A stretch of DNA of 28,998 bases. It comes from Candidatus Eiseniibacteriota bacterium. Its GTDB lineage: Bacteria > Eisenbacteria > RBG-16-71-46 > CAVPCR01 > CBDCWB01. Positions within the stretch are counted from its first letter, which is position 1. Each line of letters starts with the position of its first letter. This document shows, piece by piece, positions 3,479-27,190 of the stretch. Under the pieces are notes generated by a model. The model saw only the letters and a list, made by a program, of their open reading frames with translations, was not told the DNA's origin and did no database searches. The DNA lies in assembly GCA_965223205.1 (NCBI GenBank), contig CBDCWB010000009.1:1-28998 (forward strand), given 5' to 3'. The position numbers were made by a program, and so were the translations under genes.

Positions 3479-4713
3479 TGTATCTGATTAACGGCAAGCT
3501 GGTCGAAAACGTGCGCCAGGAGACCCTGGACGGGCGCGAGTACGTCGTCGCGCCAGTCGTGCTCCTGACAGAGGGCGTCCATTGCGGCAGTGCGGGCTGT
3601 CTCTACTACCCCGCTGTGGAGCTAGAGCGCTCCGCCGAGCGCTGGAACGGAGTTGAGCTGCCGGTCTATCACCCAGAGGGCGAGACCGCCAGGACCCCAC
3701 AAGTCATTGCACAGCAATCGGTTGGGCGATTGTTTGGCGTCCAGTACCTGGCCTCGCCGACGCCTCGGCTCCGGGGTGAGTTATGGGTTGACAAGGTCAA
3801 GGCAGAGAGAGTACACCCAGGTTTAGTAGATGCGATTGTCCAGCAATCGCATGTTGAGGTGTCAACGGGGTTGGAGGGCGATCCAATTGGTGGCCCCGGC
3901 GCATGGCGGGGTGAGCGGTACATCGCCGCGGTCGGCAACTACCAGCCGGACCACCTGGCCCTCCTGCCTGGGCAGCGGGGGGCTTGCAGTGGAGCCGATG
4001 GATGTGGGGTGTGGATGAACGACGACGGAGCCATTGACAACAAGCTTGGCGGCGCATTGCGCACAATCGCTAACGCTTTTGGGCTACTGCCGAACGGTGG
4101 GGCCGGGCAAGGTGTTGCTCGGGGCGAAGACGAGAAGGAGGACGGGATGGACACAGAACCCGGCAAGGCTGGCGCAGGGTCGGCTGAGAACGAGGAACGT
4201 TGCACCTGTGGTGCGGCGAAAAACCAGGACGACAACGCAGCCGGCCGGGAAGACTCATTGGGAGCCGGCGACGAAGCGCAGAAGGAAGGCGTTGCCGCGA
4301 CCGGGACCAAAGACGTCAGGCCCGAGGGCGACGGCGAGGAACAAAAAGCCCCCGAACAAGACAGCGAGTCGGTAACCACTGAAGATTACGTTGCGCAAGC
4401 GCCGCAGGCGGTGCGCGAGGTGCTTGAGGAAAGCCTGGCCGCGAACGCGGCCGAGAAAGATCGCCTGGTCAGGGCGATTCTCGACAATAAGCGAAACGCA
4501 TTTGCTGAAAACGACCTGCGGGCGATGCCTATTGCTAGCCTGCGAAACATCATGGCGATTAGTGATGGCGGTGTGGATTACTCCGGCGCCGCATCCGCTC
4601 CGGTGACCAGCGCAAACGCCGGCGGCTCGAAACCCGCCAAGGGCATGCCGAACTACCTCAACCAAGAGGCCACCGCGAAGCGCCTCGGGCTAAAGGAAAT
4701 GAGCAATGGGTAG
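3478..4713 (+). CDS. Putative prohead protease/scaffolding-like protein. It has an N-terminal globular domain (DUF2213-like, recalled from memory) and an acidic, low-complexity, coiled-coil-like C-terminal half.
   Basis: The ATG at 3478 overlaps the upstream TGA. The N-terminal segment is MYLINGKLVENVRQETLDGREYVVAPVVLLTEGVHCGS...VYHPEGE. The C-terminal half is rich in E, D, K, A and G (EDEKEDGMDTEPGKAGAGSAENEE...). It sits directly upstream of the decoration-like and capsid genes. Confidence 0.5.
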   Translation: MYLINGKLVENVRQETLDGREYVVAPVVLLTEGVHCGSAGCLYYPAVELERSAERWNGVELPVYHPEGETARTPQVIAQQSVGRLFGVQYLASPTPRLRGELWVDKVKAERVHPGLVDAIVQQSHVEVSTGLEGDPIGGPGAWRGERYIAAVGNYQPDHLALLPGQRGACSGADGCGVWMNDDGAIDNKLGGALRTIANAFGLLPNGGAGQGVARGEDEKEDGMDTEPGKAGAGSAENEERCTCGAAKNQDDNAAGREDSLGAGDEAQKEGVAATGTKDVRPEGDGEEQKAPEQDSESVTTEDYVAQAPQAVREVLEESLAANAAEKDRLVRAILDNKRNAFAENDLRAMPIASLRNIMAISDGGVDYSGAASAPVTSANAGGSKPAKGMPNYLNQEATAKRLGLKEMSNG

Positions 4714-5134
4714 TTTCAAGACCATCCGGATCAAGTGCGACGGGCATTTGTACAAGGAGGCGAAAGCTGGCGCCGTGATCACGCCCGGCACGCTCCTTTC
4801 GCGCGACGCGAATGGAGCGTTTATTCCACACGCAACCGCCGGCGGCGCATTTGTGCCCCTCTTTGCCTTCGAGGGTGAGCTAACGGGGCGCACGATCCAA
4901 GACACCTACGCGTCCGGCGAACAGTGTCACGCGTTGAGCTGCTTTGCTGGGCACGAGGTGCATGCCCTCTTGGTCGCGGGTGGATCGGTGTCCCCTGGCG
5001 ACGCGTTGTCCTCAAATGGTGACGGCACGCTCAAGGCCGCCGGTGCGGGCGACACTGTCGTCGGCTACGCAATGGAATCCCTGGACATCTCGGGTGGTGG
5101 CGATCCCCACATTTGGATCGAGCTTGCAGCCTAG
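4706..5134 (+). CDS. Small virion protein, DUF2190-like (possible head decoration or cement protein).
   Basis: It overlaps the upstream gene by 8 nt, with an AAGGA 8 nt upstream. The Gly/Ala-rich beta-type segment SPGDALSSNGDGTLKAAGAGDTVVGYAMES resembles DUF2190 proteins as I recall them. It lies immediately 5' of the major capsid gene. Confidence 0.5.
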   Translation: MGSFKTIRIKCDGHLYKEAKAGAVITPGTLLSRDANGAFIPHATAGGAFVPLFAFEGELTGRTIQDTYASGEQCHALSCFAGHEVHALLVAGGSVSPGDALSSNGDGTLKAAGAGDTVVGYAMESLDISGGGDPHIWIELAA

Positions 5135-5146
5135 CCGCTGCATTGG

Positions 5147-6160
5147 GTGGAGGTGGATGAGGTGCCTTTGGGACAAGCGGGGCTAGGCCCCGTACAAATG
5201 GACGACTTGCAGGGGGGCGGTAGACTCGCTCGAGCGATCGTTGCAACGAACGGTGACACGTCGCAACTGCGCAATGACACGACGCTGCGAGAGGACGACT
5301 GGGAGCGGATTGACGAGCGCGTGGTCACCGTGGCCACAAAACGCTTGGTTGGCTCGCAAGATCTCATTGCGCGCGGGTTGATTACACCGATCGACGGCAT
5401 GCGATTTACGCACGCCAGATACGAGAGGGTCTCGCGACTCAACGAGGCCGTGATGTCGATGGACGGTCAGGTGCGCTCACCCGCCGACCGACTGGTTTTC
5501 GAGCCGGACGGCACACCGCTGCCTATCACGCACATTGACTACAACATCAACCTGCGGGCACTCGAAGAGTCCCGAAACGGCAACACGCCGCTCGACACTA
5601 CGTCACACGGCATCGCCGCAGATGAGGTTTCTCGCAAGGTCGAGAAAACTCTGTTTAACGGGGCGGGTGGCTACATGTACGGCGGCTACGCCGTGTACGG
5701 CTATACCGACTTCCCGCAGCGCGTCACGATGGGGTTTGGTGTTGGCCCATGGTCCGCGGCAGCTCGCACCGGCGAGGAGATTCTCCTCGACGTGCTCGCC
5801 TTGCTCCAGGGGGCGATCGATTCAAACAAGTTCGGCCCCTATGGGATCTACTACTCGCGAAACGCTTCGACCAAAATGGCAGAGGACTTTAAGGCGAACT
5901 CCGACAAGTCGATCCGCGAGCGCATCATGGAAACGCCGGAGCTCCAGTTTTTCAAGGCTGCGGACTACCTGGCAGACGACAATGTGGTCTTGGTTAATTT
6001 AGACCAAGATACCGTTGAGATGATCGTCGGCTTGCAGGTCACACCGTTTGAGTGGACCGACGGGCCGGGATTCCAGCTTAACTTCAAGCAAGCCGCAATC
6101 TTGGTGCCACGCCTCAAGTCTGACTACCTCGGGCAGAGCGGCGTGGTCCACATGAGCTAG
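5147..6160 (+). CDS. Major capsid protein, HK97-fold, encapsulin/linocin-like family. The start is GTG at 5147 or ATG at 5198.
   Basis: LREDDWERIDERVVTVATKRLVGSQDL...PIDG and INLRALEESRNGNTPLDTTSHGIAADEVSRKVEKTLFNGAGGY align by eye with the encapsulin N-terminal helix and E-loop/P-domain regions (T. maritima encapsulin: LTEKQWQEIDNRAREI..., [39 protein letters not shown]). A GGAGGTGG lies upstream. Confidence 0.75.
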   Translation: MEVDEVPLGQAGLGPVQMDDLQGGGRLARAIVATNGDTSQLRNDTTLREDDWERIDERVVTVATKRLVGSQDLIARGLITPIDGMRFTHARYERVSRLNEAVMSMDGQVRSPADRLVFEPDGTPLPITHIDYNINLRALEESRNGNTPLDTTSHGIAADEVSRKVEKTLFNGAGGYMYGGYAVYGYTDFPQRVTMGFGVGPWSAAARTGEEILLDVLALLQGAIDSNKFGPYGIYYSRNASTKMAEDFKANSDKSIRERIMETPELQFFKAADYLADDNVVLVNLDQDTVEMIVGLQVTPFEWTDGPGFQLNFKQAAILVPRLKSDYLGQSGVVHMS

Positions 6161-8901: not shown

Positions 8902-10008
8902 ATGTCGGCACCAAGTTCACTAGTATCGAAGCTCGGGTTCAACTTCGAGAGCGTCTACGGCGGGTCAATGACCCCTAGCGATTTCCTGTTGCAGTCACCG
9001 GGAAAGGGGTTTCGCGTCTATCCGACGCAGTATCTGCCGAGGTACCCGCAAACGCCCAACGATCGCCCTGAAGTCCGTGGCGAGGCCGAGGGGATCGACC
9101 ACACGCGAATCACGACGGGAAAAATCACGGTCTCGCACGACCTTAGTTGGGATGTCCACTATTCGGGCATCGATGCGATGCTGATCGGTGCGGCGTTCGG
9201 TAACATCACGACGACAGGGTCGGGGCCTTACGTGCACACCATTAGACCGGGGCCAACTTTGCCGTCATTCGTGGTGGGCTGGATCACGCCATACGAGACG
9301 GAACTCACGTTCGACTCCCACTTTTACAACGGGATAGTCGCAAACACGCTCACGCTTTCGCACAGCGGTGAAAGTCCGCTATCCGGGTCTCTGTCGTGTA
9401 TTGGGCGAGACTGGGCAGAGTTTTTCCCGATCCTCGTACCGACTGACACCGTGACCGAACCAGGTCTATTCCAGCTCGAGGACGTCGTTGAGTGGCACCA
9501 CATCGATCCAGCTGGTTGCATCGCGGTGTCTGCCAACGGTGGCGGCGACGTCGAGGTCACGGCCGAGAGCGTTGAGTTCACCCTCAACAACAACCTCAGC
9601 TCCCGAGCGGTCTTGGCCAAGGGCCGCTACGGAAGCAGGCCCGGGCGTGGCGGGAAGCGCGACTTCATCTTGCGCGTGAAGCTGGACAAGGACAACGCGT
9701 GGAAGACCTTCCACGATGTTTTGGGTAGCAGCTCCTCAGCGACACAGGGGCGTGGTCGCGTGTCGGTGCCCTACGTCGGCCCGGGCAATCAGAAGATGAC
9801 GGTCGTATTGCAAAACTGCCAGGTGTTGGACTTGTCCCCAACGCTAGAAAACGACGAGGAGATGGTGCCCACCGCTGAGGTGCGCGGCCACTACCTAGCT
9901 TCGGAAACAGGCGACGACCAGCTCCCGTGCATCATCACCATTGAAAATGATAGGGAAGGCCCAGGTGGGCATTCCTCGAACCCAGCCACTTTCGGCGATG
10001 CCTTCTAG
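8902..10008 (+). CDS. Major tail (tube) protein.
   Basis: A strong AGGAG RBS is present. The 368-aa protein is beta-rich. It sits immediately 5' of the chaperone and tape-measure genes, which is the canonical siphovirus order. Confidence 0.6.
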   Translation: MSAPSSLVSKLGFNFESVYGGSMTPSDFLLQSPGKGFRVYPTQYLPRYPQTPNDRPEVRGEAEGIDHTRITTGKITVSHDLSWDVHYSGIDAMLIGAAFGNITTTGSGPYVHTIRPGPTLPSFVVGWITPYETELTFDSHFYNGIVANTLTLSHSGESPLSGSLSCIGRDWAEFFPILVPTDTVTEPGLFQLEDVVEWHHIDPAGCIAVSANGGGDVEVTAESVEFTLNNNLSSRAVLAKGRYGSRPGRGGKRDFILRVKLDKDNAWKTFHDVLGSSSSATQGRGRVSVPYVGPGNQKMTVVLQNCQVLDLSPTLENDEEMVPTAEVRGHYLASETGDDQLPCIITIENDREGPGGHSSNPATFGDAF

Positions 10009-17004: not shown

Positions 17005-17442
17005 ATGCATACCGTCACGCTGACAAGATGGGGCTCGACCCCGATGGGGACCTTCGGCGAGCTGCGCGCTCCGGAGTTTCGGTGCTACACCGTCGAGCCG
17101 CCGTGGAGAGGCAACGCGCGATACCTCTCGTGCATCCCGCCAGGGGTCTATCGGTTGGAGTTGGGTTCGTACCATGTCGGTGGGTACCCGGCCTATGAGC
17201 TGGTAGGTGTGCCCGGTCGAGATCTCATCAAGATTCACGCGGCAAACCGGGCACGCGAGTTGCTCGGCTGCATCGCCGTTGGAAACGACTTAGCTTGCAT
17301 CAACGGCGAGTGGGCTGTGCTCAATAGTCGCCGGACGCTAAAGCGTTTGCACGCCGTGCTCGCGCGAATGGAGAGCAAGGGCTTGGCGCCGGCGATTAGG
17401 ATCGACTGGCGGGTGATCTCAGAGCGCCTGGAGTACGCGTGA
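17005..17442 (+). CDS. YkuD-like (L,D-transpeptidase catalytic fold) protein, a candidate peptidoglycan peptidase or endolysin.
   Basis: The motif IKIHAANRARELLGCIAVGN resembles the H...(S/T/G)xGC(I/V) catalytic His/Cys signature of LD-transpeptidase domains. It sits after the tail genes, where lysis cassettes usually lie, and follows a 63-nt lower-GC intergenic spacer. Confidence 0.4.
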   Translation: MHTVTLTRWGSTPMGTFGELRAPEFRCYTVEPPWRGNARYLSCIPPGVYRLELGSYHVGGYPAYELVGVPGRDLIKIHAANRARELLGCIAVGNDLACINGEWAVLNSRRTLKRLHAVLARMESKGLAPAIRIDWRVISERLEYA

Positions 17443-19787: not shown

Positions 19788-20170
19788 ATTGGATGACATG
19801 GTCACCCGGCCACACCGACGCGCTTCTGATCGCCAACGCGATCGTCGCCGTGATCCTCGAGTGGCGCACGTTGGCCAACGCCGTGCCCGGTGACCACATC
19901 ACGCCGCGCCTCCGCCGGTTGCTGAGGCAGAGCTGGGCGTGGCCGTACTTCCTCGGCGGGCTGTTTGCCCACTTCGCGCTCTACGCGCTGTTCGAAGCGG
20001 TGCGACCACCGTGGCCGTACGTCGTGGCGCTCGCCGCCTGGTTCTTTTCTGTCTGGGTTGTGTTTGTTTTTGGCGCCGGGTTCCGGCGCTCCGGTGGCTA
20101 CACGTCGCCGGCGATCGTTGGGGTGCTGTCGCTCGCCGGGATGGTGTGCGGCGGCTTTCTGTGGGGGTGA
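19784..20170 (+). CDS. Integral membrane protein (3-4 predicted TM helices), holin-like or exclusion-like.
   Basis: ATGA coupling with an AGGAG RBS. Hydrophobic helices include ALLIANAIVAVILEW, WPYFLGGLFAHFALYALF, YVVALAAWFFSVWVVFVFGAGF and IVGVLSLAGMVCGGFLW. Confidence 0.55.
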   Translation: MNWMTWSPGHTDALLIANAIVAVILEWRTLANAVPGDHITPRLRRLLRQSWAWPYFLGGLFAHFALYALFEAVRPPWPYVVALAAWFFSVWVVFVFGAGFRRSGGYTSPAIVGVLSLAGMVCGGFLWG

Positions 20171-20173
20171 GAG

Positions 20174-20446
20174 ATGGTGGCGAAGATTTTGGCGCTGAAA
20201 ACACCAAGCGACACCGTGCGGACCGTGGTTGGCTGGCGCACGATCCTTGGGATCGTCATGCTGGCCGTGCTAGATGGATTCCGCGAGGTCGGAATCGAGT
20301 TGGGCGCAGTGGCCGGCGTTGTGCGCGCCGTGGCCGACGTGCTACTCGGCGGCGGCCTGATTTTCAAGGCGGCGAAGATCACCGACTTGCTGCGCAACGG
20401 CAAAAAGCCAGCGCACATCGAATCAATCCGGGTGCAAAACACATGA
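20174..20446 (+). CDS. Small membrane-associated protein (about 1 TM).
   Basis: A GGGGGTGAGAG RBS is present. Hydrophobic segment WRTILGIVMLAVLDGF. The stop overlaps the next start (ATGA). Confidence 0.5.
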   Translation: MVAKILALKTPSDTVRTVVGWRTILGIVMLAVLDGFREVGIELGAVAGVVRAVADVLLGGGLIFKAAKITDLLRNGKKPAHIESIRVQNT

Positions 20447-20757
20447 GGGCGCTACTCTGGGTGTTGCTCTGCCTCGCCCTTTGCCCCCAAGCCGAAGCGC
20501 ACCAACCGCCTAGTTGGGTACCCGTGGCCTATGGCAAGCTGTCGGCGACGCTCCCCATCATCCGCCTAGACGACAAGGATCGGATGCCCGGCGCACGCGC
20601 AACCTTCGGTCTCGAGTGGACCAAGCTCGGCAGCCGCTATTTCGTGACCGCCGAGTATCACCGCAACTTCGAGCAACTCAGTGGCGGGCGTGTGTGGCCG
20701 TGGCTAGACGCGGTTGAGGTGGGAGTGGGGTGGTACTTCTTGGATCCGGAAAGCTAA
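20443..20757 (+). CDS. Small secreted protein with an N-terminal signal peptide.
   Basis: The sequence begins MRALLWVLLCLALCPQAEA followed by a mature part. The ORF-track start at 19939 is rejected because 19939..20442 is Arg-rich overlap junk. Confidence 0.55.
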   Translation: MRALLWVLLCLALCPQAEAHQPPSWVPVAYGKLSATLPIIRLDDKDRMPGARATFGLEWTKLGSRYFVTAEYHRNFEQLSGGRVWPWLDAVEVGVGWYFLDPES

Positions 20758-21035
20758 AAACGAACGCCATATATCTGTGTTATGAATATTGTCCTCTCGT
20801 CTTCGCCGAATTTGTAAGAACACCCCCAGAAGCACCTCGCCCCGTTCGCGTCGATCTCGAATCGGAAGTCGGGCCGGCCCAGGTGTGTCGTTCCGCGCCT
20901 CGGACTTGATGCCAGCCGATGCAATGCAGACTCGACGCCGTCTAGCGCGGCGTCTTGGCACTCGTCGGGCAGGTTGTTCACCAGTTCGCGAAGCCCATTC
21001 TTGGCTGTATCAGTGATTCTGAGCTCGTAGCTCAT
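20754..21035 (-). CDS. RelE/ParE-superfamily-like toxin (93 aa).
   Basis: By-eye alignment to E. coli RelE: ...LASSPRRGTTHLGRPDFRFEID... against ...LESPRIEANKLRGMPDCYKIKL..., and ...ARCFWGCSYKFGEDERTIFITQIYG against ...YRLVYQVIDEKVVVFVISVG. It overlaps the upstream Panacea-like gene by 26 nt. The locus is lower-GC. Confidence 0.55.
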   Translation of the reverse strand: MSYELRITDTAKNGLRELVNNLPDECQDAALDGVESALHRLASSPRRGTTHLGRPDFRFEIDANGARCFWGCSYKFGEDERTIFITQIYGVRF

Positions 21036-21588
21036 TCATCACATCTGCGAGAGGCTGGCTCCTGCCCGCCTCTACGTCCGCTTCCCCAGCGAGCATGCTT
21101 GACAGACTGAAGCCCGAGTGCTTGCGAGCCGCGTTGTCAACGATGTGCATCGGCACATTCTCCTTTGGGCTCGCCTGGAGCATTGGCTCTGTCTTGTAGA
21201 CGACTTCTTCGCAGACGTACCTCGCGGACATGTTGAGATACGTTTCGCCAACGTAGCTCAAGACCTCTTGTTCTTCCACCGTGAAGTCGTCGTACGTCGA
21301 CTTCAGTGGTCGCAGGTCGTGCGCAGCGTATTGGCCGCATGAGACTTGGTTGTCCGCAACAAAGCCTTTGTTAGTTAGCTCTGAGAGCGCCTTATAGAAC
21401 CGCCTCGAATCAAACGGACCAAAGTCATCGTAAATGTACGTGAAAGACGATATGGGCACACCGCGATAACGGCGGGACTCCAGGTCGGCTAGGTAGACGA
21501 ACTTCGCCAACAGCGTGTGTCCGATTCCTGGGGCAATCTGCAGAAGATACAATAGTACCCGCGCATCGCGGCTGAGTTCATCAGGCAT
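21010..21588 (-). CDS. Panacea-domain (DUF4065)-like protein, the putative antitoxin partner (PanA-like). The start is the ATG at 21588, downstream of the ORF-track start.
   Basis: LLAKFVYLADLESRRYRGVPISSFTYIYDDFGPFDSRRFYKAL resembles the DUF4065 core (KLQKLLYxAQ...G.PLF...F.AW.YGPV....Y). An AAGGGGAAG RBS lies 5' of the ATG at 21588. Its 3' end overlaps the small toxin-like ORF. Confidence 0.5.
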   Translation of the reverse strand: MPDELSRDARVLLYLLQIAPGIGHTLLAKFVYLADLESRRYRGVPISSFTYIYDDFGPFDSRRFYKALSELTNKGFVADNQVSCGQYAAHDLRPLKSTYDDFTVEEQEVLSYVGETYLNMSARYVCEEVVYKTEPMLQASPKENVPMHIVDNAARKHSGFSLSSMLAGEADVEAGRSQPLADVMNELRAQNH

Positions 21589-21843
21589 CTTCTTCCCCTT
21601 CCGTTCCCAAGGCAAGTGTTCCAGTTCAGGTAACGGCGACCGCAACCACCAGCTTAACATGCAGACTACACAAAAGATGCGGTCTTGGTTTCACATTGTA
21701 AGGAGAAAACCGACCAGCTCCGGAGTCTGGTGGCTGCAACCAGCACTCCCCGGCCGGTTATCCAGCCTATCCATAGTAGCATCCCCCCTGCACTACACTC
21801 CGCCACCAGCAAAGGACGTACTCCTCAACCGTCGGACCCCACA
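21589..21843. promoter_or_regulatory. Divergent promoter/operator region between the Panacea-like operon (-) and the XRE regulator (+).
   Basis: A 255-nt non-coding gap between divergently oriented starts. It is lower in GC than the flanking genes. No motif was assigned with confidence. Confidence 0.4.
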
Positions 21844-22143
21844 ATGCCCGCTCGACAGATGCGCAGGAGGCGCGGCGACGCCAATCGTCGGCGCCAGTTT
21901 GGCGTTTGGCTCCGGGAGTGCCGGATCCAGGCCGGCTTGACCCAGGGCGAAGCCGCCGAAGCGATTGGGGGGACGTGCACCCGGTCGACTGTGTACCGCT
22001 GGGAGACGGGACGCCACGCTCCGCCGATCAACGTCATGGTGGCGCTCAAGCGGCTGTACGGGTTCGAGTGGAGCGAGGTCGAGGAGATGGCGCAGTTTCT
22101 CCCGATGCGAGACGACGCCGGGAAGAAGCGGGGCAGCGCCTAG
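21844..22143 (+). CDS. XRE-family HTH transcriptional regulator (99 aa).
   Basis: FGVWLRECRIQAGLTQGEAAEAIGGTCTRSTVYRWETGRHAPPINVMVALKRLYG is a classic Cro/C1-type HTH. No clear SD is present. It is convergent with the HEPN-like gene and overlaps it by 4 nt. Confidence 0.65.
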   Translation: MPARQMRRRRGDANRRRQFGVWLRECRIQAGLTQGEAAEAIGGTCTRSTVYRWETGRHAPPINVMVALKRLYGFEWSEVEEMAQFLPMRDDAGKKRGSA

Positions 22144-22604
22144 CTCTTTCCTTTGGCGGCTTTCTCGGGATCCATGGGCTCGTTTGGTATTAGCGCGAGC
22201 GAAACTTCGTCGATCGTCTTGTCGCAGATCTCGTCGAGCGTGGCTCTCAGGTCCTTGATCGCTTGCTTCATGAGAGCCAGGTTGTCCATTTTCCTGTCGC
22301 AATAGTCCTTCTGAGCGCCCTCAGTGATGTACAGGTTTGAGTGCACCACCTCGTTGCGCCGCTTCGCCATATCCTCGGCGCCTGGGATCGGGAGACACCT
22401 TTCCACGTCGCCGAGCGTTTTCTTGACGATGTCCTTGTCGGTCAGGCCCCTGGTGTCTTTGCGCATCATTAGATGCAATTTCATCGCTCGCTCAACAGCG
22501 ACGTACGCCAGCAGCGCTGCGGCGTATGGATACTTGCAGCGTAGCTCGCCGATGGCCTCAATTGTCTTTCTTTCAGCTTCTTGCATTCGTGTCCTTCGTT
22601 CCAT
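22140..22604 (-). CDS. HEPN-like protein (putative RNase fold) carrying an Rx4-6H motif.
   Basis: The motif AKRRNEVVHSNLY reads R-N-x3-H. The rest is an all-alpha composition. The start at 22604 has a GAGGA 5 nt upstream. It overlaps the 3' end of the GxxExxY gene by 32 nt. Confidence 0.45.
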   Translation of the reverse strand: MERRTRMQEAERKTIEAIGELRCKYPYAAALLAYVAVERAMKLHLMMRKDTRGLTDKDIVKKTLGDVERCLPIPGAEDMAKRRNEVVHSNLYITEGAQKDYCDRKMDNLALMKQAIKDLRATLDEICDKTIDEVSLALIPNEPMDPEKAAKGKS

Positions 22605-22983
22605 TTGTATCCTCGCTAGGGCGGTCAACGCCCTGGAAATCCGGTGCATCCTTGTCCGGATACGGAAAGTTCACCAGCACGCCCGAGGGGATCCCGATCG
22701 TTTTGAGGTAGGAGCGTAGCTGTGCGACGTGCGACTTACTAAGGCTGGCGGCAGCCTTCAGCTCGACCACGACTTTCCCATCGACGACGAAGTCGAGTTT
22801 GTGGATGCCCACCTTGCGGTTCTTGTAGAACACTTCGGTGGTTCTCTCGATCTCGTAGTTGATCCCGCGCAGCCCGAACTCCACGGCCATCGCCTCTTCA
22901 TAGACGACCTCGGCGTAGCCACCGCGCAACTCAGAGTAGACTTCGCAGGCGCAATCCTTGATTGTTTCTTGCAAGGTGCTCAT
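22573..22983 (-). CDS. GxxExxY family protein (PD-(D/E)xK nuclease-like fold).
   Basis: LRGGYAEVVYEEAMAVEFGLRGINYEIE...VGIHKLDFVVDGKVVVELKAAASLSKSHVAQLRSYLKTIGIPSGVLVNF matches the family signature (G.GF.E.VYE.AL..EL...G.......YK...VG.YR.D.LVE..IVELKA.....H.AQL.NYLK..G...GLLINF). Confidence 0.75.
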   Translation of the reverse strand: MSTLQETIKDCACEVYSELRGGYAEVVYEEAMAVEFGLRGINYEIERTTEVFYKNRKVGIHKLDFVVDGKVVVELKAAASLSKSHVAQLRSYLKTIGIPSGVLVNFPYPDKDAPDFQGVDRPSEDTNGTKDTNARS

Positions 22984-23009
22984 GGCAGTTCTTCTTTCCT
23001 GGGACACCG

Positions 23010-23606
23010 CTACATCAACTGATAGCTGCAACTTGTGCATGAAAATTCATGTGCAGAGTTCGTGGCGGCGCACTTTGGGCACGTCCATGGCTGGGCATCG
23101 CCCGAAGCGATCCATGGTTTGGCTGACGAAGCCGAAATCGCCTGATCCTTGTATGCGCCTACACCATACTGCACAGCAGCAATCAGCACGCACACCACGA
23201 GAAAGCGCCACAACCACGCGGTCCACTGTTCTGGCTTCCTTGTTGTTGGCTTCGTTGGTACCCCAATCGATCGAACGTGTTCAACACTAACCCAGACCAG
23301 TTTTCCCGCGTGTTTGCCCTCTAGTACGCGTACCTCACGTGACCACCACCCGTCACGACTTATCGGATTGCATGGCGTGCCGCTCGGAACACGAAAAACA
23401 ACGCCGCTGCTTAGTAGCTGTTTAACCCCAAGGTCATCGTCAGCCGCCAGAAACTGCCCGAGGCGATCGAGAGCGGCCTTAGAAGTTGCTGCAAACACGA
23501 GCTCTGAGTTCGCTCTTAGGCAATACTCTGCCCCCGCAGTTCCCTCTTGCTGGCCGGCAACTCCCATGAGAAACACCGTGGCTATCAGGCGGTTTGTTGT
23601 GCGCAT
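23010..23606 (-). CDS. Membrane protein. It has an N-terminal hydrophobic/signal segment, a soluble middle domain, an internal TM helix, and a C-terminal zinc ribbon (zf-ribbon_3-like).
   Basis: N-terminal MRTTNRLIATVFLMGVAG. Internal TM helix WTAWLWRFLVVCVLIAAVQYGVGAY. C-terminal WTCPKCAATNSAHEFSCTSCSYQL. An AGGGG RBS sits 5 nt before the ATG at 23606. It starts 8 nt after the TPR gene stop and ends 27 nt before the GxxExxY start. Confidence 0.55.
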   Translation of the reverse strand: MRTTNRLIATVFLMGVAGQQEGTAGAEYCLRANSELVFAATSKAALDRLGQFLAADDDLGVKQLLSSGVVFRVPSGTPCNPISRDGWWSREVRVLEGKHAGKLVWVSVEHVRSIGVPTKPTTRKPEQWTAWLWRFLVVCVLIAAVQYGVGAYKDQAISASSAKPWIASGDAQPWTCPKCAATNSAHEFSCTSCSYQLM

Positions 23607-23614
23607 TACGGCCC

Positions 23615-24844
23615 CTATCTCACTTGACGTTGAGTCTCTTCCACCTCCCAAACATCCCCGACCTCCCGAAATCCAGAAAGCGCTGCTTCAAAGTGTTGCT
23701 TCGCATCGTCGGCGCCGCCCAACGCCTGGAGCGCCACCGCGATGGCGCGGTGCGCGGCGGCGACCTCGAGCGGATCCTCGAGCATCTCGGCCCGGTCGCG
23801 GGCCGCTCGAGCCATGTGTAGCGCGCGGCGGTGGTCGCCCATTGCATTGTAGCAGTCGGCTTGGAGCCGTGTGCACTCCGGCCAGGTGTCACTGCGCGGT
23901 GATGGGTCCAGCTCGATGGCTCGGAGGAAGAGCCGGATGGCGACTTTGGGGCGCCCCTGGTCAGCGATGATGCGGCCCAGGTAGGCGATGCAGATGGAGT
24001 GCTGGCGCGGCCGGCCGTGCTTGATCGCTACACGAGCGCCGTCAATGGCTAGCTGCCTTGCGGCGCAAAGCGCGCCGGTCCTGCGCAGCGCTTCTGCACA
24101 GACAGCCTTTGTGCTTGCTGTTAGTGCGGCGAAACCTCGCGCTTTTGCCGACTGCTCTGCCGACTTGGCCACCTCAATGGCGTCCTCATGTCTGCCGAGG
24201 TGCATGCAACACACTGCGTGGTTGACCGCGGCGGCGATGTCGCTTTGCGGTGCGGTTGCGGCGGTCTGTGAGGCGGCGGCCGCGAGAATCTCCAAACCAC
24301 GCTCGAACCTTCGCATTCGAATTGCGATGCGTGCCCGTGCCCTGGCGGCGCCGACAGACTCCGTGTGCTGTTCGAGGTTGGCGTAGAGAGCACTCGCCGC
24401 CTCGAGCGCAGAGTCAGCTGCGGTTAGATCGCGATTGACGGATGCGAGCTTTGCCTTTGCCAGGAGCAGCTCGGCGGTCGCAACCATCGCGCTCGCCGCA
24501 TTTGCTACCGCGATCGCGTTCGCAAGATGCTCTTCAGCGTCTTCGATGGCCCCTGCTTCGCAGGCCACGCGCGACGACAGTGCGTGCGCTCGCGCAATCT
24601 CAGACGCGTCGACGCCGGCGAACAAGGAGCACAGCTCGGCCGCGGCGTCGCGTGCCTCATGGATCTGTCCAAATTGGAGAAGTGAGTGAACAAGCTGTAG
24701 GAGGCAGAAGTGGCGCGACGAGATGCCGAGGCTATTGTCCCTCAGTTGGTACTTGTAGCGCAGAACGGCTGCTCTGGGGTCTTCGGAGGGCGTGGCCACG
24801 GTGAGGTCGTCGACAATGGGATCGCAACCGCCCACCGTGGCCAT
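23615..24844 (-). CDS. TPR-repeat (all-alpha) protein of 409 aa with no recognisable HTH.
   Basis: Many Ala-rich helical hairpin repeats (...AIEVAKSAEQSAKARGFAA...AIRLFLRAIELDP...). A GGGAGG RBS is present. Start is 12 nt downstream of the small peptide gene. Confidence 0.6.
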   Translation of the reverse strand: MATVGGCDPIVDDLTVATPSEDPRAAVLRYKYQLRDNSLGISSRHFCLLQLVHSLLQFGQIHEARDAAAELCSLFAGVDASEIARAHALSSRVACEAGAIEDAEEHLANAIAVANAASAMVATAELLLAKAKLASVNRDLTAADSALEAASALYANLEQHTESVGAARARARIAIRMRRFERGLEILAAAASQTAATAPQSDIAAAVNHAVCCMHLGRHEDAIEVAKSAEQSAKARGFAALTASTKAVCAEALRRTGALCAARQLAIDGARVAIKHGRPRQHSICIAYLGRIIADQGRPKVAIRLFLRAIELDPSPRSDTWPECTRLQADCYNAMGDHRRALHMARAARDRAEMLEDPLEVAAAHRAIAVALQALGGADDAKQHFEAALSGFREVGDVWEVEETQRQVR

Positions 24845-24856
24845 GTGTCGACCTCC

Positions 24857-25063
24857 CTAGAGCAACAGCAGCAAGGTTGTGCCTAGGACCCGAAAAACGA
24901 CAAAACCCGAACCGGCTGCGCGCCCGCCGGTCTCATCGTCCTCGTCCGGCACTCCAGCCTCCTCACACCCACACTCCCCATCATCATCGCACGCCGTCGT
25001 TGGCAGCGGCGCTGCCAGAAACGCTAGAATCAGGCAAACGCTCAAAAGGCTGCGAACTCGCAT
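24857..25063 (-). CDS. Small secreted or membrane-anchored Cys-rich acidic peptide (68 aa from the ATG at 25063).
   Basis: Sequence MRVRSLLSVCLILAFLAAPLPTTA | CDDDGECGCEEAGVPDEDDETGG...GFVVFRVLGTTLLLLL. It has a signal-peptide-like N-terminus, a GCGC acidic core, and a hydrophobic C-terminus. A GGGAG lies 6 nt upstream. Confidence 0.45.
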   Translation of the reverse strand: MRVRSLLSVCLILAFLAAPLPTTACDDDGECGCEEAGVPDEDDETGGRAAGSGFVVFRVLGTTLLLLL

Positions 25064-25219
25064 TTTCAACTCCCAGGAACTTGGGGCACTCTGGCGCCCG
25101 GGCCGTCTTGGCTTGGCCCTTCCTTGGGTGCGATTCGCGTTGTACGGCGCAGATCCAAGCTAGCAAGTTTCTAGCGGGCAGGCAATAGGTTGTGCCGAAA
25201 GCCGTTCCCCGGAGGCTCG
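25064..25219. promoter_or_regulatory. Divergent lysogeny-control intergenic region. It contains the inverted repeat GCTAG-N7-CTAGC (25159-25175), a candidate operator.
   Basis: 156-nt gap between the peptide/TPR operon (-) and the tandem-HTH regulator (+). The repeat is gctagcaagtttctagc. Confidence 0.35.
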
Positions 25220-25753
25220 ATGCGCGACAGGGTGTCGCTACTACACGCACAGGGAGTGCGAAAAACCGTCGGCGAGTGGCTTAAGTGGCTCCGGTTGAAT
25301 AGCGGCCTCCGGTTGCCACGCCAGGCACAGCAGCTTGGAATCGAGGAGTCCGTGTTGCGGGATCTCGAAGAGGATCGGGCCGAGCCGAGCGCGAGCATTG
25401 CGCTGCGGCTTGCTGACTTCTACCGGCTCTCGGAGCGAGAGCTTAGGATCGTGTTCGGCGTGCCGCGCGGCATCGACGTCGATCCTCCTCTACTGCATAC
25501 ACGCACAGAAACCGCTACAATCGAGTCCATGGACCAAGTGGACCACATAGGAACTGCGATCAGGGAGGGGCGTGATCGTGCCGGCCTTACTCAGCAGCAA
25601 GTTGCCGAGATGATCGGAGCCTACAGACCCGACCTCTCCGACTGGGAGCGAGGCGAGCGCACTCCCAGTGCCGTTACCCTCCTGCGACTCGCCCGAGCGT
25701 TACGACTCGACCTCAATCGCCTCGCCCGAAGATTCTCGCTTGACAAAACGTAG
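25220..25753 (+). CDS. Tandem-HTH (2x XRE-type) transcriptional regulator, candidate prophage repressor.
   Basis: A GGAGG sits 4 nt upstream of the ATG. HTH 1 is LKWLRLNSGLRLPRQAQQLGIEESVLRDLEED. HTH 2 is IREGRDRAGLTQQQVAEMIGAYRPDLSDWERGERTPS. It is divergent from the peptide/TPR operon and lies 5' of xis-int. Confidence 0.65.
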   Translation: MRDRVSLLHAQGVRKTVGEWLKWLRLNSGLRLPRQAQQLGIEESVLRDLEEDRAEPSASIALRLADFYRLSERELRIVFGVPRGIDVDPPLLHTRTETATIESMDQVDHIGTAIREGRDRAGLTQQQVAEMIGAYRPDLSDWERGERTPSAVTLLRLARALRLDLNRLARRFSLDKT

Positions 25754-25775
25754 AGATTAGTATACCTTAGTAAAC

Positions 25776-25796
25776 GTCGACCGGGGGTCGGTCGAC
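25776..25796 (+). terminator. Perfect hairpin GTCGACCG-ggggt-CGGTCGAC located 23 nt after the regulator stop (no U-tract).
   Basis: 8-bp perfect inverted repeat with a 5-nt loop, seen directly in the sequence. The terminator/operator role is inferred. Confidence 0.35.
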
Positions 25797-25884
25797 ACTC
25801 CCAGGGGGAGGCGGGTAGGTGGTCTTGGCATTGTCGCCGCCCGCCTCCTGGGGCAAATCACCCAACTCTACCACGATTGCCAAA

Positions 25885-26079
25885 ATGGCAAAGCGGAGAG
25901 ACCTCGACATCCTGCTGACTGCGGGAGAGGTGGCCCAGCTGCTCCGGACGACACGGAGAGCGGTCTACTCCCGGGTACAGCGGGGCGAGATTCCCGGGGT
26001 GGTCAGGGTGGGGCGGTCGCTCCGGTTCCAGCGGGCGGCGGTGCTACAGTGGCTCCGGGCGTGTGGCCCTCTAGAATAG
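25885..26079 (+). CDS. xis: Excisionase / AlpA-like HTH DNA-binding protein.
   Basis: MAKRRDLDILLTAGEVAQLLRTTRRAVYSRVQRGEIPGVVRVGRSLRFQRAAVLQWL is typical of the excisionase-family HTH. It lies immediately 5' of the integrase. Confidence 0.7.
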   Translation: MAKRRDLDILLTAGEVAQLLRTTRRAVYSRVQRGEIPGVVRVGRSLRFQRAAVLQWLRACGPLE

Positions 26080-26089
26080 GAGGGCTCAA

Positions 26090-27190
26090 ATGACCGTGAA
26101 GGTCCGGCCGTACCGTCGGGGTGGTTGGGAGGTGGATCTCAGGGTAGTGCTGCCAGACGGCAGCGAGTTTCGTGAGCGTCGCAAATCACCGCTAACGTCG
26201 CGAGAGGGATCGCGGCGGTGGGGTGAGGCTCGCGAGCGAGAGTTGGTTCGTCGGGGCTTTCGGCCCCGGCGCAACGTCAAGACGCTTGGGGGGTTCGCGG
26301 AGATGTATCTCGAGTACATGGCGAGCAATCGTTGCAAGCCTAGCTACATCGACGCGCACCGCAAGTTGATCGCGGCTCACCTTAGCCCGCTGCTCGGGCA
26401 GGTCAGGCTCGATGCCATCGACCAGCCGGCAGTGGAGCGGCTCAAGGCACGACTTTCGGGTCGGGCGGCGAGTACGACCAACAACGCGCTGATCTGCCTG
26501 AGTGCAGTGCTGCGCGCTGCTGTGGCGCTTGGTGAGTTGGGTGAGGCTCCCTGCGTCATTAAGCACGTGCGGTCGGTCGAGGCGGATGAAGTGGCGTTCT
26601 ACGACGTCGCAGACTACGCCCGACTAGTGTCGGCAGCGCGGGAGCAGGATCCGCGCACCCATCTCGTGGTGTTGCTGGGTGGGCGTGCGGGGCTCAGGTC
26701 CGGGGAGATGATCGCTCTCCGCTGGGACCGCGTTGACTTCCGTCGCCGGCAGATCGCGGTGACGAGCTCGTCATGGAGGGGTGTGGAGACGGCGGCCAAG
26801 AGTCGCCGGAAGCGCATCATCCCGCTGGCACAGTCGCTGTTGGATGCGTTGCGTGCTCATCAGCACCTGCGCAGTCGCTACGTCCTTTGTAGTGAGGACG
26901 GGGCGCCGATAGGCTACTACAAGATGCGAGGGTTGATCCGTCGCGCTTGCAAGCTTGCCGGTGTCGAGTTTCGTGGGGTGCACGTGCTGCGCCACACGTG
27001 TTGTTCGCACCTCGCCATGGCGGGGGTGCCTGTGCGTGTGATCCAGGAGATTGCCGGCCATCGGCAGCTGGCGACCACGCAGAGGTACATGCACTTGTCT
27101 CCTTCGCGCGTCGACGACGGCATCCGAGTGATGGATGCTCTTGGAGACGCTTGGGAGACGCAATCTACGGAGAGCTGCAAGTCGTGTTAG
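26090..27190 (+). CDS. int: Tyrosine recombinase / phage integrase.
   Basis: An AGGAGGG RBS is present. The C-terminal catalytic signature ...LRHTCCSHLAMAGVPVRVIQEIAGHRQLATTQRYMHL shows the H-x-x-R ... Y pattern. The N-terminal region is a core-binding domain. Confidence 0.85.
   Translation: MTVKVRPYRRGGWEVDLRVVLPDGSEFRERRKSPLTSREGSRRWGEARERELVRRGFRPRRNVKTLGGFAEMYLEYMASNRCKPSYIDAHRKLIAAHLSPLLGQVRLDAIDQPAVERLKARLSGRAASTTNNALICLSAVLRAAVALGELGEAPCVIKHVRSVEADEVAFYDVADYARLVSAAREQDPRTHLVVLLGGRAGLRSGEMIALRWDRVDFRRRQIAVTSSSWRGVETAAKSRRKRIIPLAQSLLDALRAHQHLRSRYVLCSEDGAPIGYYKMRGLIRRACKLAGVEFRGVHVLRHTCCSHLAMAGVPVRVIQEIAGHRQLATTQRYMHLSPSRVDDGIRVMDALGDAWETQSTESCKSC

Follow-up and report, generated by a model that had tools for sequence, protein, structure and literature searches.

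Does the block of tightly packed genes beside the integrase of a phage-bearing contig from a Candidatus Eiseniibacteriota bacterium (CBDCWB010000009.1) form one defense system, or has unrelated cargo accumulated there? The window, by which we mean the whole contig of 28,998 bp, carries phage hallmarks, and a preliminary description had read three genes at 22140-23606 (encoding a membrane zinc-ribbon protein, a GxxExxY protein and a HEPN-like protein) as a single undescribed three-gene module. That interpretation is partly supported, in that the domains had been called rightly and the claim of a system is unsupported: no other sequence examined contains the trio, which looks like stacked prophage cargo. 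We lean, with modest confidence, toward the view that the third gene encodes a solo prophage HEPN RNase, which would be an abortive-infection or toxin-like effector, and that this gene sits beside independently acquired cargo.

A HEPN domain outside the curated families

The gene at the center of this question and its motif are as follows.

22140-22604, minus strand: HEPN-like single-domain protein, 154 aa, with GAGGA upstream
22341-22358, minus strand: Rx4H catalytic motif, R83-N-E-V-V-H88 (in KRRNEVVH), codons read from the sequence

The deposited annotation starts this gene at an ATG at 22586, which gives a protein of 148 aa. An earlier word-indexed homologue search with the protein had found one relative only. 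A profile of the window protein and this relative was run exhaustively with HMMER against 1.84 billion representatives and recovered 62 proteins at E ≤ 1e-3 (42 of them at E ≤ 1e-10), most about 165 aa long. The family comprises about 60 clusters at 50% identity, with loci that span 30-64% GC. The 39 relatives that were aligned are 24-38% identical to the window protein, and mean column identity across the family is about 24%. The sole invariant columns of this alignment are R83 and H88 of RNEVVH; N84, E38, R39 and K42 are at least 90% conserved, the last three of these in a PYAAxLLxYxxIER helix. The alignment is rich in indels between helices 2 and 3.

A first AF2 run on a two-sequence alignment was unusable (pLDDT 44) and is superseded by a structure model from the 39-sequence alignment. 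This model is confident and predicts a four-helix fold of two alpha-hairpins, with the Rx4H motif at the end of helix 79-87 and E38 in helix 26-47, the second helix, the latter residue being placed along the sequence and the model helix only. The values listed for HEPN proteins are 8.7 for ST0689, 8.5 for AF0298, 8.3 for a HEPN toxin, 8.3 for Csm6, 8.2 for HI0074, 7.6 for HepT SO_3166, 7.5 for the AbiA HEPN domain and 6.9 for AbiV. In the published description of the HEPN superfamily, an Rx4-6H motif closes helix 3 or opens the loop that leads to helix 4, helix 2 has a conserved acid near this motif, and the insert that joins helices 2 and 3 is variable (PMC3710099). Because the R and H are invariant, the fold model is confident, and the positions of the motif, the helix-2 acid and the insert match this description, we assign the third gene, on sequence and model, to a HEPN domain of a family absent from Pfam, NCBIfam and PADLOC. 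The HEPN call in the preliminary description, which had been made from RNxxxH alone, is thus upheld by residues invariant family-wide and by a fold that agrees, although no curated hidden Markov model (HMM) matches at threshold. The protein is predicted to be a metal-independent RNase.

NCBIfam and PADLOC gave no match for the HEPN-like protein, PHROGs gave one at chance level (E=0.06), and PADLOC on the 39 relatives gave no consistent match. No PDB chain was matched in a sequence search with either profile, and a viral-contig scan with a 10-sequence HEPN-like alignment found none. We note that the helix2-helix3 insert of the window protein (residues ~48-60) is shorter by about 26 residues than that of most aligned relatives, and that the protein is among the shortest full-length members aligned.

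Neighborhoods of the family in other loci

The HEPN-like family was seen in 15 independent contexts, 14 of them with DNA (L001, L032, L033, L036, L039, L040, L043, L044, L045, L047, L049, L050, L052, L053 and the P0010 contig), and no neighbor is common to them. All-against-all BLAST of the neighbors in L001 and L032-L046 yielded links between duplicate contigs only. When the 14 loci with DNA were searched with the GxxExxY HMM and with the other proteins of the window, no match was found in any of them, be it to a GxxExxY protein, to the membrane zinc-ribbon protein or to a TPR-repeat protein encoded next to the block. The reverse comparison agrees, as 30 GxxExxY loci contain no HEPN-like, membrane zinc-ribbon or TPR homologue (tblastn, HMM); the neighbors there are housekeeping genes, such as those for a B12-binding domain protein, a sigma factor, a flavodoxin-like protein and RadC. 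Co-occurrence of the three homologues elsewhere, by which the module had been proposed to be checked, is therefore shared by none of the 14 and 30 loci; with no synteny in these loci, and a membrane protein that has no homologue, the proposal of a single module is not supported. The window is the only case seen of a GxxExxY gene next to a HEPN gene. R-x4-H ORFs (open reading frames) beside GxxExxY genes in L013, L023 and others were considered and rejected as Arg-rich spurious frames.

The contexts range from mobile to chromosomal. Tyrosine recombinases or integrases occur in L001, L033 and L050, the last of which also has a primase; L033 holds a transposase, an integrase, PIN, ParD and HNH; and the P0010 gene adjoins a Terminase_4 gene. 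The L053, L039 and L052 members stand alone among housekeeping genes, that of L053 between msrA and a LysR gene. From the unshared neighbors and this range of contexts, the family behaves as a mostly solitary, horizontally mobile gene.

Several other neighbors were observed in these loci. Immediately downstream of the HEPN-like gene, L040 encodes a 203-aa protein with its own R-x4-6-H motif (3693-4301, LRNGIAH) and L036 a 259-aa protein with a weak DUF4145 match (814-1593, RNLNSWAH), and these may be tandem HEPN genes. DUF5677, the only Pfam family met twice among the HEPN-like neighbors, is found near the gene in L036 (2949-3677) and in L050 (5597-6394; E=1e-23).

Companion genes in the window

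The HEPN-like gene is accompanied by the following genes and features on the same strand.

23615-24844, minus strand: TPR-repeat protein, 409 aa (Pfam TPR_12 E=3e-10, TPR_14 E=1e-7, TPR_MalT E=4e-6)
23010-23606, minus strand: orphan membrane/zinc-ribbon protein, 198 aa, ATG at 23606
23148-23228, minus strand: predicted transmembrane (TM) helix of the membrane ORF, residues 127-153, QWTAWLWRFLVVCVLIAAVQYGVGAYK, Kyte-Doolittle 19-residue window means 1.7-1.8
23028-23081, minus strand: zinc-ribbon pattern of the membrane ORF, W-x-C-x2-C-x3-N-x6-C-x2-C (C176...C193; CPKC...CTSC), read from the sequence
22573-22983, minus strand: GxxExxY/PDDEXK_3 protein, 136 aa, ATG at 22983, AGGAAAGAAG just before the ATG

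Within 22140-23606, three co-directional minus-strand ORFs are tightly packed, as had been described. Coding was assessed with a codon log-odds model trained on the structural genes of the contig, with six frames compared, and none of the other five frames outscores the annotated one in any ORF of the cluster, the TPR gene included. The 32-nucleotide (nt) overlap given earlier for the GxxExxY and HEPN-like ORFs stands (14 nt if the alternative HEPN-like ATG is used), whereas the gap from the membrane-protein stop to the GxxExxY ATG is counted at 26 nt and not 27. The 409-aa TPR gene had been missed. Because this gene ends 8 nt before the membrane-protein ATG, on the same strand, and carries a Shine-Dalgarno sequence (GGGAGG) 7 nt upstream of its own ATG, the co-directional cluster is more likely one of four genes with the TPR gene first. 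The four genes are probably co-transcribed, the HEPN gene with them.

The GxxExxY assignment is firmly confirmed, both Pfam and TIGR04256 giving E~1e-30: the protein scores 106.8 bits vs a cutoff of 22 for PDDEXK_3 (PF13366, E=1.2e-30) and 106.2 bits vs a cutoff of 35 for TIGR04256 (E=1.3e-30). It carries the signature GYAEVVY, LDF and VELK (the D...E-x-K catalytic core), and in an alignment of 31 sequences (the window protein and 30 relatives from GTDB species representatives, 32-54% identical and from many phyla) it keeps the G, E, Y, D and E-x-K and all columns that are at least 85% conserved. The signature residues being kept, the middle gene is, judged by its sequence, a bona fide member of the GxxExxY/PD-(D/E)xK-fold family, a family of unknown function (PMC3424549). 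Its last ~28 aa form a non-conserved tail, the relatives aligning only to about residue 105-127, and it is this tail that creates the overlap with the HEPN-like gene. Since the tail is non-conserved, the 32-nt overlap is not evidence of co-evolved coupling. No GxxExxY relatives were found by tblastn among 50,697 deposited phage genomes, and PADLOC gave weak Cas4-like PD-(D/E)xK matches only (E ≥ 1e-4).

The membrane ORF consists of an N-terminal hydrophobic signal-like segment (residues 6-18), a ~100-aa globular region with at most a chance-level KOW match, the TM helix and a C-terminal C4 pattern. The earlier reading of a membrane protein with a C-terminal CPxC...CxxC is sound, as the hydrophobic span 127-153 and CPKC...CTSC are both present. 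The zinc-ribbon pattern has exact RanBP2-type spacing, and its Pfam matches are sub-threshold (Zn_ribbon_RanBP, E=0.006, 16 bits vs a cutoff of 27; RUBY_RBDX, E=0.002; DZR_2, E=0.02). Among 5.8 billion proteins, the only match to this ORF was itself, and it belongs to no Pfam, PADLOC, NCBIfam or PHROG family. Its codon score of 0.069 is the weakest of the three, vs 0.32-0.37 for the GxxExxY and HEPN-like ORFs, and its GC at third codon positions is 0.56 vs 0.72-0.74 for its neighbors. We regard the membrane ORF as probably a real gene.

These data bear on whether the block has any defense or toxin role. The HEPN-like protein could instead be a non-catalytic RNA or nucleotide binder or a phage-internal protein, with the GxxExxY gene carried along selfishly and the membrane ORF perhaps not a gene at all. 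The orphan status and weak codon signal of the membrane ORF are in line with such an account, as are the lack of a known function for the GxxExxY family, the existence of non-catalytic HEPN domains (PMC3710099) and the ordinary chromosomal contexts of some family members. However, an R and H that are strictly invariant, together with the helix-2 acid, in a family of ~24% identity argue for catalysis; the GxxExxY protein retains all catalytic residues; and the membrane ORF, its frame the best of six, tightly fills the gap between real genes. We therefore find it very unlikely that the block lacks a defense or toxin role.

A solo effector or a multi-component system

Under the favored reading, the block would be accessory cargo of a temperate phage, placed between its structural genes and its integrase. 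By analogy with other HEPN proteins, the HEPN-like protein would form a dimer or higher oligomer, in which two R83-x4-H88 motifs and the helix-2 E38 may combine into a composite metal-independent RNase site. The protein would be inactive in the lysogen; on a trigger, it would cleave RNA (tRNA, rRNA or mRNA), and the outcome would be that the infection of a superinfecting phage is aborted or that growth is arrested in a toxin-like manner. The TPR gene would head the transcription unit, and the TPR, membrane and GxxExxY genes would not be obligate partners of the HEPN protein.

Several results weigh against a solo HEPN RNase. No curated HEPN HMM matches at threshold, the best being HEPN_Cthe2314 (E=0.065-0.077, 13 bits vs a cutoff of 27), weak HEPN profile matches appear in only 3 of the 39 relatives (best E=0.003), and Foldseek against PDB and BFVD returned nothing significant for the HEPN-like model. 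The comparison contigs are mostly short (1-8 kb), such that partners more than 1-2 genes away would be missed. The tight packing of the cluster (8 nt, 26 nt and an overlap) leaves room for functional coupling, and so does one other locus, L047 (73-2065, also L048), in which one strand encodes, in this order, a multi-TM protein (174 aa), a VRR-NUC protein (229 aa) and a HEPN-like protein that shares 36% identity with that of the window. VRR-NUC is another PD-(D/E)xK family (E=5.6e-6, above cutoff, PDLF...VEVK), and this trio mirrors the order in the window with non-homologous parts.

The L047 arrangement suits a different account, in which the TPR, membrane zinc-ribbon, GxxExxY and HEPN proteins are one multi-component abortive-infection system, a membrane/TPR sensor controlling DNase-fold and RNase effectors, with parts replaceable by non-orthologous equivalents. 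Co-directional packing with Shine-Dalgarno sequences is consistent with it, and HEPN fusions or operons with restriction endonuclease (REase) domains, TPR/Sel1 and TM plus zinc ribbon (Plim_2023) are on record (PMC3710099). Further hints come from L045, where the HEPN-like gene has an HNH fragment on its upstream side and a TM protein on its downstream side, from L044, with a TM protein containing H-x3-C-x2-C upstream, and from the CPSC...CGKC pattern of a protein in L033. These hints, with L047, keep the multi-component reading alive but are post hoc, and mobile contexts are in any case rich in nucleases. Adjacency to a membrane protein was rejected as evidence and is given no weight, since chance alone is expected to put a TM protein within two genes. 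Moreover, no homologous partner is repeated in the 15 contexts, the L053, L039 and L052 members have no such partner beside them, the membrane protein is an orphan, the GxxExxY relatives are solitary, and the overlap comes from a non-conserved tail. The HEPN-like and membrane proteins matched no PADLOC-DB v2 defense component, the TPR protein had no PADLOC match, and the PADLOC check proposed in the preliminary description finds no catalogued defense system among the components. Taken together, a system of all four proteins appears unlikely to us.

The L033 protein just mentioned (5020-5958) is 312 aa long, has no Pfam family, carries its CPSC...CGKC zinc-ribbon pattern at the C-terminus and is encoded 43 nt upstream of the HEPN-like gene; the pairing is seen in four contigs, three of them with DNA, that overlap one another and stem from different samples.

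A broader conjecture, which we rate as rather improbable, is that the window and L047 are instances of a modular abortive-infection architecture (HEPN, an upstream DNase-fold protein such as GxxExxY, VRR-NUC or HNH, and a membrane protein) in which partners are swapped, or else that the GxxExxY protein is a partner of the HEPN RNase. If the former were true, non-orthologous displacement of partners would hide the system from homology-based synteny tests; if the latter, the window would provide the first functional context for the very widespread GxxExxY family.

The phage and its cargo region

The solo HEPN gene that we favor lies in a region bounded by these phage genes.

5147-6160: major-head-like protein, a phage structural gene
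8902-10008: minor-tail-like protein, a phage structural gene
25190-25753, plus strand: double-HTH XRE gene, beside the integrase
26090-27190: tyrosine integrase, confirmed

The block had been placed between lysis genes and the integrase. The integrase side of this holds, and the head and tail genes are confirmed too; no lysis gene was confirmed upstream of the block in the annotation of the contig genes. The lower-GC island reported there is real, with GC of 0.55-0.59 at 21001-23500 and 0.60-0.72 in the flanks. This patch adjoins the integrase and also holds a Panacea-domain gene, its ParE-like partner and XRE regulators. Directly after the tail genes, we observed a DUF5675/phrog_1501 protein (17005-17442, plus strand, E=2e-25).

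The phage on the contig appears new. The region 20000-26000 has no blastn match among the 50,697 deposited phages, no phage or plasmid record matched the region or its proteins, the TPR protein has no tblastn match in INPHARED phages, and IMG/VR contains no relatives of the integrase or of the 597-aa protein, because of which the cargo slot is not comparable between related phages. The contig has no tRNA gene, and an attachment (att) site was not identified. The TPR gene is divergent from the double-HTH gene, and a lysogeny switch would be expected roughly at the position of this pair; the TPR protein might have a regulatory or sensing role instead of being cargo. Promoter and terminator scans of the region gave results at or below chance level.

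Beyond the HEPN-like gene, a Panacea/SocA-like antitoxin-domain protein of 216 aa is encoded at 21010-21660 (minus strand, Pfam E=2.7e-8). A 93-aa ORF with a weak ParE-toxin match (E=0.049) lies downstream of it, at 20754-21035 on the minus strand, with a 26-nt overlap. The two (20754-21660) look like a PanA-type toxin-antitoxin pair in the cargo region. Between this pair and the block, an XRE-family HTH_31 gene (21685-22143, plus strand, E=2.6e-14) runs toward the HEPN-like gene, and the two convergent ORFs overlap by 4 nt (22140-22143), stop codons counted. Antisense or transcriptional interference between them is possible.

The HTH_31 gene also raises the question of whether the HEPN-like protein is a type II toxin, with either this XRE protein or the overlapped GxxExxY product as its antitoxin. 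An upstream gene that overlaps the next is the typical order of antitoxin-toxin pairs, the HTH_31 stop overlaps the HEPN-like stop, and HEPN toxins with antitoxins are well known, such as HepT/MntA (PMC4621449). In L050/L051, the HEPN-like gene is preceded on its own strand, at a distance of 31 nt, by an XRE HTH gene, and in L032 a 66-aa ORF lies 37 nt upstream. However, the XRE gene of the window is convergent and is therefore not co-transcribed, and the XRE proteins near HEPN-like genes in different loci are not alike, the HTH_31 protein being unlike the L050 and L044 upstream proteins. The GxxExxY family is not known as an antitoxin and stands alone in 30 loci, and many members of the HEPN-like family are without a small upstream gene. 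There is also no MNT nucleotidyltransferase: the ORFs at 20754-25753 contain no NTase domain, and none was seen among the neighbors checked in related loci. We consider such a type II pairing highly doubtful. A type III arrangement, with an RNA antitoxin, is unlikely because 20000-26200 contains no tandem repeats or Rfam RNAs; no meaningful repeats were found there either.

Relation to known systems

A solo HEPN RNase at this locus would add a small HEPN family outside Pfam, NCBIfam and PADLOC, with a clean R/H signature and a mostly solitary habit, and would fit a view now taking shape, in which solo HEPN proteins such as HepS are sensor and killer in one. As the GxxExxY, HEPN and membrane combination is not a conserved system, effort can be spared on that hypothesis, and the HEPN-like protein itself is a compact candidate for testing.

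Among the companion genes, the GxxExxY protein resembles its family (TIGR04256/PF13366) in its score of 106 bits vs cutoffs of 22-35 and in having all signature residues, and differs in its ~28-aa tail, its phage location and its position next to a HEPN gene. The closest match by parts list is the Plim_2023-type HEPN-TM-TM-zinc-ribbon protein: a HEPN domain, TM segment(s) and a C-terminal zinc ribbon are all present in the window, here predicted to lie in one transcription unit, but the TM/zinc-ribbon module is a separate orphan encoded two genes upstream, and the comparison is one of parts only. The HEPN-MNT type II toxin-antitoxin HepT/MntA, e.g., SO_3166/SO_3165 (PMC4621449), is a poorer parallel, as the window is without an adjacent MNT gene and the HEPN-like sequence is unrelated to DUF86.

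With the HEPN superfamily at large (Anantharaman et al. 2013, PMC3710099), for which the nearest models are PF18730 (Cthe_2314-like) and PF18739 (Apea-like), the modeled protein shares an all-helical two-hairpin fold, an Rx4H motif at the end of helix 3, a helix-2 acid and a variable helix2-helix3 insert, and, like other members, it is small, stand-alone and on a mobile element. It differs in scoring below the curated HMM thresholds, in matching no PDB chain by sequence and in having an insert ~26 residues shorter. The best functional parallels are HepS of prophage Gifsy-1, a solo HEPN protein that is expressed constitutively, lacks a conserved partner and serves as both the sensor of infection and the executor of abortive infection (PMC13043305), and Butters gp57r, a solo prophage HEPN defense gene (bioRxiv 10.1101/2023.01.03.522681). 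The window gene differs from both in lying in an operon with three other genes, and the likeness is one of features and not of sequence relationship. Those features are a prophage accessory gene, a single HEPN domain, a canonical Rx4-6H motif and no conserved partner, and what is new here is a member, at the level of a family, of the known HEPN superfamily, in a cargo slot of a kind typical for prophages.

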